A stretch of DNA of 64,000 nt from Escherichia coli 042 (GTDB lineage Bacteria > Pseudomonadota > Gammaproteobacteria > Enterobacterales > Enterobacteriaceae), in assembly GCF_000027125.1 (NCBI RefSeq), contig NC_017626.1; one strand, 5' to 3'. Under the pieces are notes generated by a model. That model saw only the letters and a list, made by a program, of their open reading frames with translations. It had not been told where the DNA came from and did no database searches. A program made the position numbers and the translations under genes. The first letter of the stretch is position 1; every line of letters begins with the position of its first letter. Shown piece by piece: positions 15,770-23,194 of this stretch.

Positions 15770-15906
15770 AATCTTAACTACAATATGATTCATTTTGATG
15801 ATTGTTTCATAAGGAACAGTGAAGTAAGATCTAAGATGAGTTAAATTTTATACAGTATAATCATAATGTTGCAGCAAGGTGGTTATAATTGAAAGAATAT
15901 TTAGAT

Positions 15907-17364
15907 ATGAATACATCTCATGTAAGAGTTGTTACTCATATGTGTGGGTTCCTGGTTTGGCTCTATAGTCTTTCAATGTTGCCACCAATGGTTGTAGCAT
16001 TGTTTTATAAAGAAAAAAGCCTGTTCGTTTTCTTTATAACTTTCGTTATATTTTTTTGCATTGGTGGCGGAGCGTGGTATACAACTAAGAAATCTGGTAT
16101 TCAATTACGTACCCGTGATGGGTTTATTATAATTGTAATGTTTTGGATTTTGTTTTCTGTTATTAGTGCATTCCCTTTATGGATTGACTCAGAACTTAAT
16201 TTAACGTTTATTGATGCTCTATTTGAAGGGGTTTCTGGAATAACAACAACAGGAGCAACTGTAATTGATGATGTTAGTTCATTACCTCGGGCATATTTGT
16301 ACTATCGGTCACAGTTAAATTTTATAGGTGGCTTAGGAGTTATTGTTCTGGCGGTTGCTGTATTGCCATTATTGGGTATTGGTGGTGCAAAGCTTTATCA
16401 GTCAGAAATGCCAGGGCCATTTAAGGATGACAAACTTACTCCCCGCCTGGCCGATACGTCACGGACACTTTGGATAACTTATTCTTTATTAGGTATTGCT
16501 TGTATTGTCTGTTATAGACTTGCAGGAATGCCTTTGTTTGATGCTATTTGTCACGGGATATCCACAGTTTCGCTTGGTGGTTTCTCAACTCATAGCGAGA
16601 GTATCGGATATTTTAATAACTATTTGGTTGAGCTGGTGGCTGGTTCTTTTTCCCTGCTATCGGCTTTCAACTTCACCCTTTGGTATATTGTTATTAGCAG
16701 GAAAACGTTAAAACCTTTAATCAGAGATATTGAACTTCGTTTCTTTCTGTTAATAGCCTTAGGGGTGATCATTGTTACCTCTTTCCAGGTCTGGCATATA
16801 GGTATGTATGACTTGCCTGGAAGTTTTATTCATTCGTTTTTTCTTGCCAGCTCCATGCTCACTGATAATGGTTTAGCTACGCAGGATTACGCAAACTGGC
16901 CCACGCACACGATAGTGTTTTTGCTGTTGTCAAGTTTCTTTGGGGGATGTATAGGTTCAACTTGTGGTGGAATTAAGTCACTTCGATTTCTTATACTTTT
17001 CAAACAAAGCAAACACGAGATAAACCAGCTTTCTCATCCCAGAGCGTTGTTGAGTGTAAATGTAGGAGGGAAGATAGTTACAGATCGTGTAATGAGGTCT
17101 GTATGGAGTTTCTTTTTTCTTTATACTCTCTTCACGGTGTTTTTTATACTGGTGTTAAATGGTATGGGATATGATTTTCTTACATCATTTGCAACAGTGG
17201 CTGCATGTATTAATAATATGGGATTAGGTTTTGGGGCTACTGCATCGTCATTCGGAGTGCTTAATGACATTGCAAAATATTTAATGTGCATAGCTATGAT
17301 TCTTGGTCGCCTTGAAATTTATCCTGTTATTATATTGTTTTCAGGTTTTTTTTGGCGCTCCTAA
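15907..17364 (+). CDS. trkG: Potassium uptake protein TrkG (485 aa)
   Basis: Polytopic membrane protein matching TrkG/TrkH; AT-rich relative to flanks. Confidence 0.85.
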   Translation: MNTSHVRVVTHMCGFLVWLYSLSMLPPMVVALFYKEKSLFVFFITFVIFFCIGGGAWYTTKKSGIQLRTRDGFIIIVMFWILFSVISAFPLWIDSELNLTFIDALFEGVSGITTTGATVIDDVSSLPRAYLYYRSQLNFIGGLGVIVLAVAVLPLLGIGGAKLYQSEMPGPFKDDKLTPRLADTSRTLWITYSLLGIACIVCYRLAGMPLFDAICHGISTVSLGGFSTHSESIGYFNNYLVELVAGSFSLLSAFNFTLWYIVISRKTLKPLIRDIELRFFLLIALGVIIVTSFQVWHIGMYDLPGSFIHSFFLASSMLTDNGLATQDYANWPTHTIVFLLLSSFFGGCIGSTCGGIKSLRFLILFKQSKHEINQLSHPRALLSVNVGGKIVTDRVMRSVWSFFFLYTLFTVFFILVLNGMGYDFLTSFATVAACINNMGLGFGATASSFGVLNDIAKYLMCIAMILGRLEIYPVIILFSGFFWRS

Positions 17365-17501
17365 TATATGGCTGATTTATAATTGTGAGTTTAATATTAT
17401 ATTGACTCACTCATTGATCCAATACCTAACTTTACCAGCAACACCTCCGCCCCCAGTAGCACTGGCTGCTGGGGTGCGTTTTATTCATAAAGCAAGGCTG
17501 T

Positions 17502-18293
17502 ATGAGCGAGAAATTGAAGATCGTCTATCGCCCTTTACAAGAACTGTCTCCGTATGCACACAACGCCAGGACACACAGCCCTGAGCAGGTGGCACAACTG
17601 GTAGAAAGCATTAAGCAATTCGGCTGGACTAATCCGGTGCTGATTGATGAAAAGGGCGAAATTATTGCTGGTCACGGTCGCGTTATGGCGGCTGAAGTGC
17701 TCAAAATGGATTCCATTCCGGTCATCGTTCTGTCTGGTTTGATGGATGATCAGAAAAAGGCGTACCGCCTGGCAGATAATCGCCTGCCGCTGAACGCTGG
17801 CTGGGATGAAGAACTGTTGCGGATGGAGCTGTCGGAGCTAATCAATGCTGATTTTGATATCTCCCTGACAGGATTCAGCCCGACAGAAATTGATGAACTG
17901 TTGACGGATGTTTTGCCAGGTACAGGAAATGAGGAGGAGCCGTACACGACGAAAATTGATACGCCTGTTTATGAGCCGTCGGGCGATAAACCGGACATCA
18001 GTGAGCTGTACGACGATACGAAAACTCAGGAGCTGATCAGCCGGATACGTTCGGCGTCCCTTGAGCCCGATATCGAAAAATTCCTCCTGTGCGCGGCAGA
18101 ACGCCACACGGTGTTTAATTTCAGCAGAATTGCGGACTATTACGCTCACGCCCCCGCTGAAATTCAGTGTTTTTTCGAGGAGTCGGCGCTGGTGATCATT
18201 GATTATCAGCAGGCTATTGAAAATGGATTTGTCCGGATGACGCAGCGCATGGTGGAGATCATGCATGGTGGTGAGGAGGAGGAATATGCGTGA
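17502..18293 (+). CDS. ParB-like nuclease domain protein, 263 aa
   Basis: N-terminal ParB/Srx-like motif (GHGR..A); acidic C-terminus. Confidence 0.65.
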   Translation: MSEKLKIVYRPLQELSPYAHNARTHSPEQVAQLVESIKQFGWTNPVLIDEKGEIIAGHGRVMAAEVLKMDSIPVIVLSGLMDDQKKAYRLADNRLPLNAGWDEELLRMELSELINADFDISLTGFSPTEIDELLTDVLPGTGNEEEPYTTKIDTPVYEPSGDKPDISELYDDTKTQELISRIRSASLEPDIEKFLLCAAERHTVFNFSRIADYYAHAPAEIQCFFEESALVIIDYQQAIENGFVRMTQRMVEIMHGGEEEEYA

Positions 18294-19218
18294 TGATTTT
18301 TGCGCCTTTATTCTGACTCACGGGCGACCGGACAAAGTTCTGACTTACCGGACGTTGCGTCGTGCTGGCTATACCGGGAAAATTTTTATCGTTGTTGATG
18401 ATGAAGATAAGACACGGCATCAGTACATGGCTGAATTTGGTGAACAGGTGCTGGTGTTTTCCAAAGCCGATATCGCCAGTCGTTTTGACGAAGCCGATAA
18501 TTTCGGTGACCGCCGCTCAATTTTTTACGCCCGTAATGCCTGTTTCGACCTGGCAAAACTGGTCGGGTGTAAATACTTCATTCAGCTCGATGATGATTAT
18601 CACGAGTTCCAGTTTCGGGTGGATCGCAACTATGACCAGGCCTATTTTCCGATAAGGAAACTGGATGCGATCCTTTCTGAAATGCTGGCGTACTACGAAT
18701 CAATACCTGCTCTTTCCATCGCTATGTCGCAGGGCGGGGATTTTCTTGGTGACAATGGCGGCCATGCTTCGTGGGTGAAACGCAAGGCAATGAACAGCTT
18801 TATCTGTTCGGTTGATCGACCGTTCTCATTCATGGGGCGCATTAACGAGGATGTGAATACGTACACGAATCTCGGTCGCTGTGGTGAATTGTTTATGACG
18901 ATCGGTGCTGTCCAGTTAGGGCAGAAACAGACGCAGAAAAACAGCGGCGGAATGACCGAGCTGTATCTGGATTCCGGAACCTACGTTAAAAGTTTTTACT
19001 CCGTCATGTATGCGCCGTCGTGCGTAAAAATCTCACTGATGGGTGCCAGCCATAAACGCATTCACCATCAGGTCACCTGGAACAACGCTGCAGTAAAAAT
19101 CCTTCACGAAAAATACAGGAAGAAGACACCCTGCATATCAATAGGGGTGACAAATGATTCCATATTCGAAAGTCGAGTCTCTGGCAGCGTGCCGGATGAC
19201 TGCACAACAAATCGCTGA
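18286..19218 (+). CDS. Hypothetical protein, 310 aa (possible nucleotide-sugar transferase-like fold)
   Basis: Strong RBS GAGGAGGAGG; motifs FILTHGRP, IVVDDED, FIQLDDDY suggest DXD-type transferase but unverified. Confidence 0.5.
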   Translation: MRDDFCAFILTHGRPDKVLTYRTLRRAGYTGKIFIVVDDEDKTRHQYMAEFGEQVLVFSKADIASRFDEADNFGDRRSIFYARNACFDLAKLVGCKYFIQLDDDYHEFQFRVDRNYDQAYFPIRKLDAILSEMLAYYESIPALSIAMSQGGDFLGDNGGHASWVKRKAMNSFICSVDRPFSFMGRINEDVNTYTNLGRCGELFMTIGAVQLGQKQTQKNSGGMTELYLDSGTYVKSFYSVMYAPSCVKISLMGASHKRIHHQVTWNNAAVKILHEKYRKKTPCISIGVTNDSIFESRVSGSVPDDCTTNR

Positions 19219-19405
19219 CGTTCTGGATGTTGATCTGAACCGACTGAAAGAAAATCGGGAAGCAATGACAGATTTTTATGCGGCCATCCGTAAGGGCAGA
19301 GCGAAAGGTGAAGCCGAGTTACGAGCGGCATTGTTTAAGCTTGCCAGAAAAGGGGATGCCTTTGCTCTGCGCGAACTACTCAGGGTGGATAAAAATCAGG
19401 ACTAA
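19154..19405 (+). CDS. Small HTH-like phage protein, 83 aa
   Basis: ORF overlapping end of upstream gene; start uncertain. Confidence 0.4.
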   Translation: MIPYSKVESLAACRMTAQQIADVLDVDLNRLKENREAMTDFYAAIRKGRAKGEAELRAALFKLARKGDAFALRELLRVDKNQD

Positions 19406-19408
19406 CTG

Positions 19409-20503
19409 ATGAGCAGACCGGACTGGGGGGCGTTGCAGCAGGAGTATATTGCTGAATACACCCGCTCCGGTATATCTCCGGTGGCATGGTGTGAAGCAAG
19501 GGGACTGAATTACGCAACAGCCCGTCGTTACATCAAAAAACCTCCGAAAAATGCGCAGACAGAAATGCGCAAAACTGCGCAAAAAAGTGCGCAGAAAAAA
19601 TCTGCGCAGACTGCACAAAAGCGGAACGAAAAATCTCAGGAAAAAAAGCCAGTATTCGATGCGGGCCTGAATGAGGGCGACGCGGAGGAATTTTCGTTCT
19701 GTCCCGATGAATTCGGCATTTCTGACCAGCAGGCTAAGTTTGCGATGCTTGTTGCTCAGGGGAAAAAGCCGACAGAGGCGTACCGACTAGCCGGTTATGA
19801 GGGGCAAGGTGCGACAGCTAACAGCAACGCCAGTCGTATGCTTAGAAATGCCAGGGTTTTTCGCGCTATCAGCTACTTCCGCAATCAGTACCAGAAACGC
19901 TATACCGCAGACCTGGATTTACTGGTGAGTCAGTTGATGGCCATTGTCCTGGCCGACCCCAATCAGCTTGCACAATTTCGCCGTGTTAACTGCCGTTATT
20001 GCTGGGGCGAGAATCATCTCTACCAGTGGCGCGATATAGCAGAATTCGACAAGGCAGCGGCGCAGGCTTCCAGAGATGGCAAACCCGAACCGGAATATGG
20101 AGGCCTCGGCTTTGTTGATAACGCCATACCCAATCCGGACTGCCCGAAGTGCTGCGGTGAGGGAACGGGACAGCTTTATATGGCTGATACCACTCTGCTT
20201 GATGGGGATGCGCGGCAATTATATGCAGGGGCAAAACTCGGAAAATTCGGCGTTGAGATCCTGCTGGAGGATAAGGCTGCCGCCCGGCGTGAATTGTTGC
20301 GTTTGCTTTCTGCTGGCGGGGCTTTATGTGCAGATAAGCGGCTACAGGAACTGGAAATTGAACGACGCAGAATGGAAAACCAGAAGCTGCGCAAAGAGAT
20401 CGAAACGGTGGAAGATAATGAACATCCCCAGCCTGTGGCGATCAATATTAATGTGGTTGATGCCAGAGTAAGGAGTGATGAAGATGATCTCTCCGACGCT
20501 TAA
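19409..20503 (+). CDS. Terminase small subunit (P27-type), 364 aa
   Basis: N-terminal HTH, position directly upstream of large terminase. Confidence 0.7.
   Translation: MSRPDWGALQQEYIAEYTRSGISPVAWCEARGLNYATARRYIKKPPKNAQTEMRKTAQKSAQKKSAQTAQKRNEKSQEKKPVFDAGLNEGDAEEFSFCPDEFGISDQQAKFAMLVAQGKKPTEAYRLAGYEGQGATANSNASRMLRNARVFRAISYFRNQYQKRYTADLDLLVSQLMAIVLADPNQLAQFRRVNCRYCWGENHLYQWRDIAEFDKAAAQASRDGKPEPEYGGLGFVDNAIPNPDCPKCCGEGTGQLYMADTTLLDGDARQLYAGAKLGKFGVEILLEDKAAARRELLRLLSAGGALCADKRLQELEIERRRMENQKLRKEIETVEDNEHPQPVAININVVDARVRSDEDDLSDA
19550..19620 (+). repeat. TGCGCA(G/A) direct-repeat array (5-6 copies, 9-15 bp spacing)
   Basis: tgcgca at 19552, 19566, 19576, 19588, 19603, degenerate 19612. Confidence 0.6.
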
Positions 20504-21785
20504 TGTGCCTCAGGCGCGATTTCTTTCAATGCCCCATAAATTTAAAGCCTATATTGCTGGTTTTGGCTCGGGCAAAACATGGGTTGGGTGTGGCGGCATA
20601 TGCAAGGGGATTTGGGAGCATCCAGGTATAAATCAGGGATATTTTGCGCCAACGTATCCCCAAATTCGCGATATTTTTTACCCTACAGTGGAAGAAGTTG
20701 CTGCTGACTGGGGATTGAACGTAAAAATTAATGAGGGAAATAAAGAGGTTCACTTTTATTACGGACGCCAGTATCGGGGAACCACTATCTGCAGATCGAT
20801 GGAGAAGCCACAAACGATCGTCGGTTTCAAAATTGGTAATGCGCTGGTGGATGAACTGGACATTTTGCCGAAGGAAAAAGCCAGAACGGCGTGGCGCAAG
20901 ATAATTGCGCGTATGCGTTATAAGATTGATGGACTTCGCAACGGTATTGACGTTACAACCACGCCGGAAGGATTCAAATTTGTCTACGAGCAGTTTGTTA
21001 AAGCCGTGCGTGAAAAAACAGAGCTGGCCTCACTGTATGGTCTGGTGCAGGCATCTACTTTCGATAATGAAAAGAACCTGCCAGCAGATTACATTCCTTC
21101 GCTTCTTGAATCATACCCACCAGAGCTGATTAAAGCCTATCTTCGAGGACAGTTTACTAACCTGACAAGTGGTACTGTTTACCATCAGTTTGACCGGAAA
21201 CTGAATAATTGCGAAGAAGTGGAGCAGCCAGGGGAGCCGATTTATATTGGGATGGATTTTAACGTTGGAAAGATGGCGGGGATCGTCCATGTGCTGCGTT
21301 TGGGGCTTCCATGTGCGGTAACTGAAATCATCAATGCCTACGATACGCCGGATATGATCCGCATCATTAAAGAACGCTTCTGGCTGTATGACGGGAATGA
21401 TTACCGGAAAGTGAGGGAGATTTATATTTATCCAGATGCTTCCGGAGATTCCAGAAAATCAAGTAACGCAAGTACGACGGATATAGCCCAGCTTAAGCAG
21501 GCTGGTTTTAACGTTGTGGTGAACAGCTCGAACCCGCCAGTAAAAGATCGCGTTAACTCAATGAATGCAATGTTCTGCAATGCCAATGGTGAGCGTCGCT
21601 ATAAAGTTAATGTGAAGCGTTGTCCGGTATATGCCGAATCTCTGGAGCAACAGGTCTGGGATGATAAGGGGGAGCCTGATAAAAAATCTGGCAATGATCA
21701 CCCGAATGATGCCGGAGGTTATTTCATCGTTAAGCAATTCCCTATTGTCAAACCGACCGGAAGAGTCACATCACTTCGGATTTAA
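20475..21785 (+). CDS. Terminase large subunit, 436 aa
   Basis: Walker A GFGSGKT near N-terminus; size and position. Confidence 0.85.
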   Translation: MMKMISPTLNVPQARFLSMPHKFKAYIAGFGSGKTWVGCGGICKGIWEHPGINQGYFAPTYPQIRDIFYPTVEEVAADWGLNVKINEGNKEVHFYYGRQYRGTTICRSMEKPQTIVGFKIGNALVDELDILPKEKARTAWRKIIARMRYKIDGLRNGIDVTTTPEGFKFVYEQFVKAVREKTELASLYGLVQASTFDNEKNLPADYIPSLLESYPPELIKAYLRGQFTNLTSGTVYHQFDRKLNNCEEVEQPGEPIYIGMDFNVGKMAGIVHVLRLGLPCAVTEIINAYDTPDMIRIIKERFWLYDGNDYRKVREIYIYPDASGDSRKSSNASTTDIAQLKQAGFNVVVNSSNPPVKDRVNSMNAMFCNANGERRYKVNVKRCPVYAESLEQQVWDDKGEPDKKSGNDHPNDAGGYFIVKQFPIVKPTGRVTSLRI

Positions 21786-21787
21786 TT

Positions 21788-23194
21788 ATGGCTGATATAT
21801 CAACACCCAACCTCGACTATAACGATATGCTGGAGGCGTGGGATATTAACGACGCATTGATGGGCGGTACGCTTGAAATGCGCAGGCAGGGGGAAAATTA
21901 TCTCCCCAAATGGCCTAATGAAGATGAAGACGCTTATAAAAAACGCCTGTCTGTGGCTACGCTACTTCCTGTGTATGAAGAAAGCATCAAACAAAATATT
22001 GGGCGCATATTTGCAGAGCCGACAGTATTGAGTGAGGAAACGCCGGAAAAAATCAGGGAATATGCAGAAAATATCGACATGGAGGGGAGCCGACTGGATG
22101 TGTGGGCGCAGCAATTTTTCAGTCTCGCATTTCAGTATGGTGTGGCACATGCGCTGGTGGACTATCCACGGACGGATATGAAAGAGATTCGGACAAAAGC
22201 CGATGAAAACGCGGCCGGTGGTCGCCCGTACGTTACGATGCTGAATCCACGCCAGGTTATTGGATGGAAATCGAAAGTTGAAAAAGGGAAAGTTGTTCTC
22301 ACTGATTTGCGTATAAAAGAGGTCATCATTATTGATGGTGATGATTTCGGGCAGAAGAAGGTGGAGCAGATCCGCCATATTATGCCCCGTCGAGTTGAAA
22401 TTTATCGACGCAGCGAAGGTACTAATGGCGAATCTGTCTGGACGCTTCATGAGTCATGGAATACCAGCCGTGATGATATTCCTCTGGTAACACTGTATAC
22501 GAAGAAAACAGGGTTTATGCGTGGTACACCGCCATTGCTTAATCTTGGCTTGCTGAATATCAAGCACTGGCAAAGCCAGAGCGAGCAGGACAATATTCTT
22601 CATGTTGCCCGCGTTCCATTGCTGGTGGCCTACGGGCTGGACAGGAATGAAGAACTGACGGTTGGTGCATCCACCGCTACGATTTTTGAGGACAGAACAA
22701 AAAATGGCCTCGAATATGTTGAACATAGTGGCGCAGCGATAGAATCTGGCGAAACATCACTTGAGAAGCTGGAAAATCAGATGCGTCATGCCGGCGCTAA
22801 ACTTCTGCGGGCTGAAAATACATCCACCAAATCTGTTGATCAGACTAATGAAGAGCGGATGCAGGAACACTCGCCGCTTTATACAATGGCGAACTCCCTC
22901 GAAGATGCCCTCGATAATATTCTCCAGATAATGGCGGAATGGAGCGGAGAGAGTTGCGGTGGCAATGTGGATGTGCGCACTGAACTGGATGTATCTGCCC
23001 AGGTGTTTGACTCATCCTCCGCGCTGGCTGTTCAGTCATTGCGTCAGGGCGGTGATATACGTCAGATTGATGCGGTTCGGGTGTTGCAGGCGTTGAAATT
23101 TATCGATCAGGATTCCCGTCCAGAGGAAGTGATCGATGAATTAAAAAATCAGAGTGTAATGCTGATGGAAATCAATGATGCAAACCGTGAATGA
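21788..23194 (+). CDS. Portal protein, 468 aa
   Basis: Follows terminase; size. Confidence 0.7.
   Translation: MADISTPNLDYNDMLEAWDINDALMGGTLEMRRQGENYLPKWPNEDEDAYKKRLSVATLLPVYEESIKQNIGRIFAEPTVLSEETPEKIREYAENIDMEGSRLDVWAQQFFSLAFQYGVAHALVDYPRTDMKEIRTKADENAAGGRPYVTMLNPRQVIGWKSKVEKGKVVLTDLRIKEVIIIDGDDFGQKKVEQIRHIMPRRVEIYRRSEGTNGESVWTLHESWNTSRDDIPLVTLYTKKTGFMRGTPPLLNLGLLNIKHWQSQSEQDNILHVARVPLLVAYGLDRNEELTVGASTATIFEDRTKNGLEYVEHSGAAIESGETSLEKLENQMRHAGAKLLRAENTSTKSVDQTNEERMQEHSPLYTMANSLEDALDNILQIMAEWSGESCGGNVDVRTELDVSAQVFDSSSALAVQSLRQGGDIRQIDAVRVLQALKFIDQDSRPEEVIDELKNQSVMLMEINDANRE

Follow-up and report, generated by a model that had tools for sequence, protein, structure and literature searches.

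A TGCGCA hexamer array inside the small terminase gene of an Escherichia coli Rac-type prophage is probably the TerS-recognition part of a P1-like pac site

The packaging site (pac) of phage P1 is a 161-bp element within the pacA gene, with seven TGATCA/G hexamers that carry Dam sites, and synonymous mutation of these hexamers has been used to lower the packaging of P1 DNA (PMC10028697). In the annotated P1 record TGATCA is found at nucleotides 194, 201, 213 and 228 of pacA, followed by an IHF site at 256-268, the mapped cuts at 278-284 and further hexamers at 336 and 347. The hexamers span nucleotides 194-352, in mixed reading frames and just past the region encoding a helix-turn-helix (HTH) domain. 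They form two groups, HEX4 and HEX3, around the IHF site and the cleavage points, and are read by the PacA/PacB pacase. Here we describe an array of TGCGCA hexamers inside a small terminase (TerS) gene of E. coli 042, in a stretch of 64,000 nucleotides which we call the window, and we argue that it is probably a site of the same design. For other phages (P22, Sf6, SPP1 and SF6) sequence-specific pac recognition by small terminases has been hard to demonstrate, and the mechanism has been called unclear (review PMC9611059). A 44-residue HTH adjoining its own repeated target, with both changing together, would be a tractable system for learning how a pac-type TerS reads DNA.

Several other packaging systems share features with the locus. 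In SPP1 and SF6 the pac elements (pacL, pacC and pacR) lie in or beside terS and offer multiple contact points to TerS, as in the layout of the window (PMC9611059). The core of the window TerS belongs to Pfam Terminase_2, like G1P, and the model of its second HTH bears a weak resemblance to the DNA-binding domain of SF6 G1P. However, the SPP1 sites are longer, non-identical boxes around the cut, while the repeats in the window are identical hexamers, and the window TerS adds a PacA-like HTH ahead of the G1P-like domain. The pac site of P22, a headful temperate enterobacterial phage, lies inside small-terminase gene 3, a placement like that in the window (PMC9611059). It is, however, a single asymmetric site of 22 bp and not an array of palindromic hexamers, and the P22 TerS is unrelated. 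To our knowledge there is no co-linear module of HTH and site in P22. The R-sites of lambda cosB are similar in that several short sites near terS are bound by the N-terminal HTH of gpNu1. Lambda, nevertheless, is a cos phage nicked at a fixed place, with IHF helping to bend the DNA; its sites are upstream of the gene, and they have no sequence relation to the array.

The letters of the window from 19550 to 19620 are aaTGCGCAgacagaaaTGCGCAaaacTGCGCAaaaaagTGCGCAgaaaaaatcTGCGCAgacTGCACAaaag. Both reading of the sequence and an exact search place TGCGCA at 19552-19557, 19566-19571, 19576-19581, 19588-19593 and 19603-19608, with a sixth copy, TGCACA, one mismatch away, at 19612-19617 (Table 1). 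Start-to-start spacings are 14, 10, 12, 15 and 9 bp, and the bases 3' of the six hexamers are, in order, G, A, A, G, G and A. The original prediction, made from the sequence alone, had reported five to six TGCGCA copies at 9-15 bp within a small terminase gene, and our exact search agrees with it. It also mentioned that pac sites of several phages consist of short phased repeats; in the array the distances of 9-15 bp, with a family mean of 11.4 bp, are not strictly phased. The array covers nucleotides 144-209 of the 1095 in terS and its first copy starts 11 nucleotides past the sequence encoding the 44-residue HTH. Among relatives it mostly begins 5-14 nucleotides past codon 44 and holds 4-7 copies; the extended consensus of the family is AAAcTGCGCArAA. 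Close relatives in E. coli have arrays of 4-6 copies, which change by whole units and by single substitutions; the sixth copy, TGCACA in the window, is TGCGCA in most of them.

Table 1. Positions in the window of the hexamer array, the terminase genes and their parts, and the adjoining portal gene
Feature	Position	Strand	Remarks
Small terminase (TerS) gene, 364 amino acids	19409..20503	+	phrog_51; Pfam Terminase_2; AF2 model
N-terminal three-helix HTH of TerS, 44 residues (MSRPDWGALQQEYIAEYTRSGISPVAWCEARGLNYATARRYIKK)	19409..19540	+	AF2; PacA-like; proposed hexamer reader
Lys/Ala/Gln-rich linker, about residues 45-95, predicted flexible	19541..19693	+	array within its first half
Hexamer array	19552..19617	.	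five exact TGCGCA and a degenerate TGCACA, A-rich spacers
Large terminase (TerL) gene	20475..21785	+	overlaps the end of terS; Terminase_6N 5e-33, Terminase_6C 1e-10; phrog_2, phrog_10250
Portal gene, head-packaging context	21788..23194	+	phrog_145, 2.5e-165

TGCGCA occurs 30 times in the 64 kb, while shuffled sequences have 31.4 +/- 5.9, so there is no overall enrichment. By a Poisson estimate, five or more copies within 57 bp have a probability of about 1e-10 for any one interval of that length and of about 7e-6 for the window as a whole; elsewhere in the window a 100-bp bin has three copies at most, even with one mismatch tolerated. Given that shuffles match the total while five copies stand in 57 bp, the frequency of the motif is ordinary but its clustering is extraordinary. 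We considered TGCGCA as a target of restriction or methylation and rejected the idea on reasoning, since the clustering and the link to the HTH would stay unexplained.

The peptide encoded by the array stretch is ...KNAQTEMRKTAQKSAQKKSAQTAQK..., within the open reading frame 19409-20503. Four copies are read as xxT-GCG-CAr (x-Ala-Gln), but copy 2, in a point missed by the original prediction, is read in a different frame, as aTG-CGC-Aaa (Met-Arg-Lys); hence the array is not simply an Ala-Gln-Lys peptide repeat. The terS genes of Klebsiella phages, whose TerS is about 40% identical, have six TGCGCA in the same place and in all three frames (TAQ, TAQ, PAQ, LRT, TAQ, CAE). For a broader view we chose loci, 68 of them unique, whose encoded protein resembles residues 1-44 of TerS, so that the DNA motif had no influence on the choice. 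Their 256 array copies are distributed over the three frames as 204, 48 and 4, in 23 peptide contexts. Ala-Gln is written nnT-GCG-CAR in 199 of 208 cases (96%) in the linker and in 40 of 147 (27%) elsewhere in the same genes (p = 2.5e-45); these frame and codon counts are not phylogenetically independent, yet their direction is unambiguous. A larger, mixed set of loci gives the same picture of codons and frames. The linker peptide varies widely among relatives and the hexamer is constant. It is the hexamer, not the peptide, that is conserved, and the array is selected as DNA.

These counts bear directly on the idea that a low-complexity Lys/Ala/Gln linker, growing by replication slippage, produced the array incidentally and that the DNA repeat is without a function in cis. 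The linker is indeed modelled with low confidence and is probably disordered, and gain and loss of whole units between close relatives is what slippage would give. But slippage does not account for the use of three frames and 23 peptide contexts with synonymous sites fixed, nor for a hexamer that is invariant across genera despite change of the peptide, nor for a motif that switches with a residue of the neighbouring HTH (see below). In our opinion this explanation is very unlikely.

The domain preceding the array is the obvious candidate for its reader. An AlphaFold (AF2) model of TerS, built on 17 relatives, has a confident three-helix bundle at residues 1-45 (predicted local distance difference test, pLDDT, 81-90; helices 6-20, 24-30 and 35-38), while pLDDT is below 50 for residues 54-93 of the linker. 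The PacA family phrog_1711 matches residues 6-79 of TerS (E 6.5e-05). Conversely, residues 3-40 of P1 PacA align with the TerS family profile in hhalign with a probability of 81.5% (E 1.1e-05, 38 columns), and the N-terminus of PacA was also aligned by BLAST to a TerS from metagenome contig SRR32022529_86223 (locus L213). Judging from these profile comparisons, the N-terminal HTH of TerS is a remote homologue of the PacA N-terminus. In NCBIfam, residues 11-55 gave solely a sub-threshold match to an IS66 TnpA HTH, and neither TerS nor TerL had a significant match when solved structures were searched by sequence.

If this HTH reads the hexamer, the two should change together, and they do. A third helix of the form A-R-R-Y/H-I-K-K goes with TGCGCA in 53 of 54 protein-ascertained unique loci, the exception being a disrupted gene, and the form A-K-R-Y/H-I-K-V/I goes with TGCGAA / TTCGCA in 14 of 14, although shared ancestry inflates these counts and the R and K classes may go back to few independent events. 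Arg39 is thus paired with TGCGCA and Lys39 with TGCGAA. Across 77 unique domain sequences the TGCGCA and TGCGAA classes share no residue at column 39, which holds for no other column, and the most similar two domains from opposite classes differ at 3 of the 44 residues. Members further away extend the pattern: a distant metagenomic HTH with AKRY (L214) is followed by seven copies of TGCGAA, a helix with AKDY (L212) by TCCGAA / TTCGGA, and the ARTR helix of the Shiga toxin (Stx) phage Min27 by four (C/T)GATCAT with a 12-bp period, while a close relative of the Min27 domain that has ARRY (L018) is followed by TGCGCA.

A natural deletion points the same way. Rac-SA53 (KU052037), a defective Rac prophage carrying the LT-IIa toxin, has at 1412-2440 a truncated terS, which its annotation describes as two genes fused through a deletion. 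Its HTH is deleted, and two of five repeat positions are still TGCGCA, the others being TTCGCA, TGCGCT and TGCCCA. In this prophage the hexamers have decayed where the HTH, their presumed reader, is lost, and we count this in favour of recognition. Comparison of the array in related prophages was the check proposed together with the original prediction, and it finds the hexamer kept across relatives and coupled to the HTH of TerS. The co-variation suggests that the HTH recognizes the hexamer, as a role confined to structure or to the peptide would not predict it.

Two of the loci are worth describing on their own. In Min27 (L126, NC_010237), at about 2630-2690 of the locus, the four (C/T)GATCAT encode IDHEIDHKTDHEIDHD, and each has a Dam GATC like the P1 hexamers; these repeats of Min27/933W-type phages are a candidate pac site of Stx-converting phages. 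In L213, at about nucleotides 130-400 of terS, following a helix with NTARRYLKV, seven to eight AGTGATCA repeats (the P1 hexamer) are interleaved with three CTGCGCA. An array which mixes two types of motif misfits a simple code of one helix for one hexamer.

The explanation that TGCGCA serves through secondary structure has to be weighed against the same data. Being self-complementary, the hexamers could pair into mRNA hairpins affecting translation or stability, or form antisense terminators made of a hairpin and a T-run. The RNA of 19535-19630 folds at -31.7 kcal/mol, in comparison with -16.9 +/- 2.7 for shuffles (z = -5.5), and four of the seven terminator-like sites in 18900-20700 come from array copies on the minus strand. 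But any palindromic repeat folds likewise, and whereas any self-complementary sequence would do, over 100 diverse arrays retain this very hexamer. The TGCGAA arrays hold many single, non-palindromic copies, and there is no room for a loop where the spacing is 7 bp. How the motif is linked to residue 39 of the HTH would also be left unexplained. We therefore consider a role in secondary structure highly improbable.

The association of array and HTH can also be approached from the DNA side. We scanned a collection of viral contigs blindly with the pattern TGCGCA-N3-10-TGCGCA-N3-10-TGCGCA, which is found in at least 120 loci. In 72 of the 120 matches listed the array directly follows a homologue of the N-terminal domain of TerS, and 2 more are truncated TerS genes (74 in total). 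Of the 46 listed matches outside the TerS family, the majority represent pentapeptide repeats, collagen-like GAQ repeats or GC-rich DNA. Some 16 of the 72 are similar just over the first 75 residues or so, and there the rest of TerS, as well as TerL, differs. When TerS bodies were classed by PHROG searches of their C-terminal parts, HTH and array were found joined to at least four of them: phrog_51 (the window and Klebsiella), phrog_370 (Stx phage Min27 and others), phrog_32222 (Providencia PSTCR3) and phrog_1711 (P1 PacA). From these comparisons it appears that the HTH domain and the array travel together as a mobile module.

Such joints raise another explanation of the array, namely that short identical repeats at the border of HTH and TerS body promote the shuffling of domains among prophages. 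Besides the joining to at least four unrelated bodies, it is consistent with the Megablast similarity of one E. coli relative (H98), which stops at query position 154, i.e. at the array. However, repeats of six bases are too short for efficient homologous exchange, and a recombination joint needs neither several copies nor conservation irrespective of frame nor co-variation with the HTH. We give this explanation hardly any weight; shuffling would rather follow from the array than be what it is for.

One of the 46 matches outside this family, on a contig from IMG/VR (L123), lies in a 173-residue open reading frame with no match in PHROG. The frame encodes an unrelated small HTH protein (..ESGSYRATAKKFGVSDNTVKK..), after which come three TGCGCA in two frames (ENAQIAQKCAEKK), possibly an independent instance of the HTH-plus-hexamer design.

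How close is the locus to P1 pac? In both, the site is inside the small-terminase gene, soon after homologous N-terminal HTH domains; in both it consists of multiple 6-bp palindromes of the form TGnnCA with irregular spacing of 7-15 bp, set in mixed reading frames in a poorly conserved part of the protein. Because placement, kind of repeat and neighbouring HTH match the experimentally defined P1 pac, we favour a P1-type pac reading: the array would be the TerS-recognition part of the prophage's pac site, located inside the sequence coding for the linker of its own TerS. We put the probability of this roughly at 0.7. Most likely it represents a new variant of P1-type pac, with TGCGCA as the hexamer, without Dam sites, without an IHF site and with a single cluster. 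The original prediction had likewise proposed that the repeats are the cis-acting pac element, and this now finds support in the conservation at DNA level, the co-variation with the HTH, the homology to PacA, the mapped layout of P1 and the relatedness of TerL, all of it comparative evidence.

The second cluster deserves a closer look, given its role in the P1 layout. None was found near the array of the window, where the next TGCGCA is at 20388, 780 bp away, and 21 of 25 window-like TerS genes have no second cluster. In 48 of 70 Klebsiella-like genes, on the other hand, 2-4 further copies lie 165-215 bp downstream, a bipartite layout like that of P1. We note that in the Klebsiella phages of loci L002-L005 (terS nucleotides 360-403) and in many IMG/VR loci this second group, of two to three TGCGCA, is in mixed frames and falls in the sequence coding for the SF6-like HTH (VAQAIAQ...VRT), the arrangement resembling HEX4 and HEX3.

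We envisage the following mechanism. The PacA-like HTH of each TerS subunit would bind one hexamer, and with 5-6 sites about 9-15 bp apart in A-rich, bendable DNA, several HTHs of one TerS oligomer could engage the same stretch of concatemeric DNA or of prophage DNA in situ. The complex of TerS and array would then recruit TerL, the presumed nuclease and motor, which would make the first cut nearby; headful packaging would proceed rightwards through terL, the portal gene and the head genes. We infer the binding, the stoichiometry of one HTH per hexamer, where the cut falls, which way packaging runs and that it is headful.

Some of the evidence on TerL is relevant to the last point. Jerseyvirus (Jersey-like) phages of a Kenyan collection encode large terminases with 43-44% identity to the one in the window. 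This group has been typed as P1-like headful by PhageTerm and pulsed-field gel electrophoresis, one member, phage K47, having been tested (PMC10783031). With such relatives a pac/headful mechanism seems plausible for the prophage. Three other lines were set aside. The pac of the LF82 phage Gally has been mapped inside termS by coverage, but Gally is a P22-like phage with a TerS of 140 residues, presumably of another family. A 933W-like Stx phage has been typed as 'Mu-like' by PhageTerm, with ends containing host DNA, which fits packaging in situ but is not usable as evidence. The ends of contigs and loci near the array were dropped as indicators of packaged ends, since the lengths of the loci reflect data storage and provirus trimming.

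A number of observations speak against a P1-type pac site. First, the hexamer is TGCGCA, not TGATCA, and 19535-19630 has no GATC. An array without GATC makes timing control by Dam methylation impossible for the window, while relatives in Stx phages (GATCAT) and L213 (TGATCA) do have GATC. Second, the window has one cluster of 5-6 copies where P1 has 4 + 3. Third, the IHF consensus WATCARNNNNTTR is not found within 19000-21000, as far as a scan with the consensus can tell. GATC methylation sites, a second cluster and an IHF site all matter for cleavage in P1. Fourth, the similarity of TerS to PacA is short and modest (the 38 columns and 81.5% given above), and beyond it the proteins are unrelated, the window TerS body being phrog_51 / Terminase_2 and its TerL Terminase_6N/6C, unrelated to PacA (phrog_1711) and PacB. 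Fifth, P1 and L213 share the A-R-R-Y helix of the window yet use TGATCA. Residue 39 alone hence does not set the specificity; other positions must contribute, and the code is incomplete. The shared ancestry behind the co-variation counts belongs here as well. In the literature that we searched (TGCGCA and terminase, Stx pac, lateral transduction in E. coli, the PacA HTH) nothing mentions the array or ties TGCGCA to packaging. Finally, TerS carries a second HTH, at residues 99-146, which is confident in the AF2 model and for which Foldseek ranks 2cmp first, the DNA-binding domain of SF6 G1P (template-modelling score to the target 0.74, probability 0.93, but weak, E = 1.3). This modelled domain might be the real reader of pac.

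The last point leads to the explanation which we take most seriously besides pac, that the HTH binds the hexamers for a purpose other than packaging. The array might be an operator through which TerS autoregulates terS and terL, or a tether for another step. Co-variation and coupling in a module tell of recognition and not of its purpose, the array lies within the transcribed terS-terL unit, and the second, SF6-like domain could take care of pac recognition. Against this, the homologous arrangement in P1 is a mapped pac, with cuts between the hexamer clusters; there is no promoter-like site in 18900-20700; and 5-7 sites placed 140 nucleotides inside a coding region would be an unusual design for repression. 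In our opinion an exclusively non-packaging role is unlikely, while a regulatory role of the same contact between TerS and DNA could coexist with packaging.

Beyond the single locus, the cassettes of HTH plus hexamers, as compared here, appear to be a wider and previously unremarked family that includes Stx phages. Carriers include P1, Rac-type prophages, Stx phages of the 933W/Min27 type, and phages of Klebsiella, Yersinia, Providencia and Aeromonas. Tentatively, at somewhat less than even odds, one may go further and regard the HTH with its self-encoded array as a portable, self-addressed cassette of packaging specificity. Its code would be readable in part, Arg or Lys at residue 39 going with C or A at base 5 and Asp at residue 40 with TCCGAA, and it would have been placed on at least four unrelated TerS bodies. 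If so, orthogonal packaging specificities would decide on cross-packaging between co-resident prophages and satellites, and on where lateral transduction starts.

The pac reading itself, if true, has practical consequences. About 16% of complete E. coli genomes (895 of 5426) carry the terS gene of the window, which is 100% identical in E. coli FDAARGOS_1058. For the prophage in these 895 genomes the start of packaging, and hence the origin and direction of lateral transduction, would become predictable, and the same prediction would extend to Stx-converting phages. The design of P1 pac, so far treated as a peculiarity of P1, would extend to many lambdoid phages, including versions without Dam control.

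As for the remainder of TerS, it matches phrog_51 (1.7e-76) and Pfam Terminase_2 (PF03592, independent E-value 2.2e-07, residues 122-321), the latter match being split by a CxxC...CxxC insertion. The order of parts is the N-terminal HTH, the linker, the second, SF6 G1P-like HTH, the core with the insertion and a C-terminal coiled tail. The insertion (window 19991-20152, residues 195-248) has two invariant Cys pairs (CRYC...CPKC) and the look of a zinc ribbon, and it is kept in 17 of 17 aligned relatives.

Elsewhere in the window the IHF consensus occurs 14 times, in comparison with 5.9 +/- 2.4 in shuffles, none of which reached 14; all 14 matches are between 23.8 and 64 kb.

Immediately before terS is an open reading frame of 83 residues (window 19154-19405, plus strand), which stops 3 nucleotides before the gene and looks like an HTH protein. 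Its match (E 8e-23) is to phrog_309, a different small-terminase family, at inner positions 145-218 of 319, and the loci of Klebsiella phages lack this frame. It could be an accessory DNA-binding factor or the remnant of an older terS. On the other side, a MuF-like head gene follows the portal gene. The array-bearing terS sits in a Rac-type prophage of E. coli, and just before it (window 15889-19218) are cargo genes for a trkG-like potassium transporter, a ParB-like nuclease (phrog_620) and a protein with a match to a glucosyltransferase family (phrog_842). Of these, the first two recall the Rac prophage of E. coli K-12.

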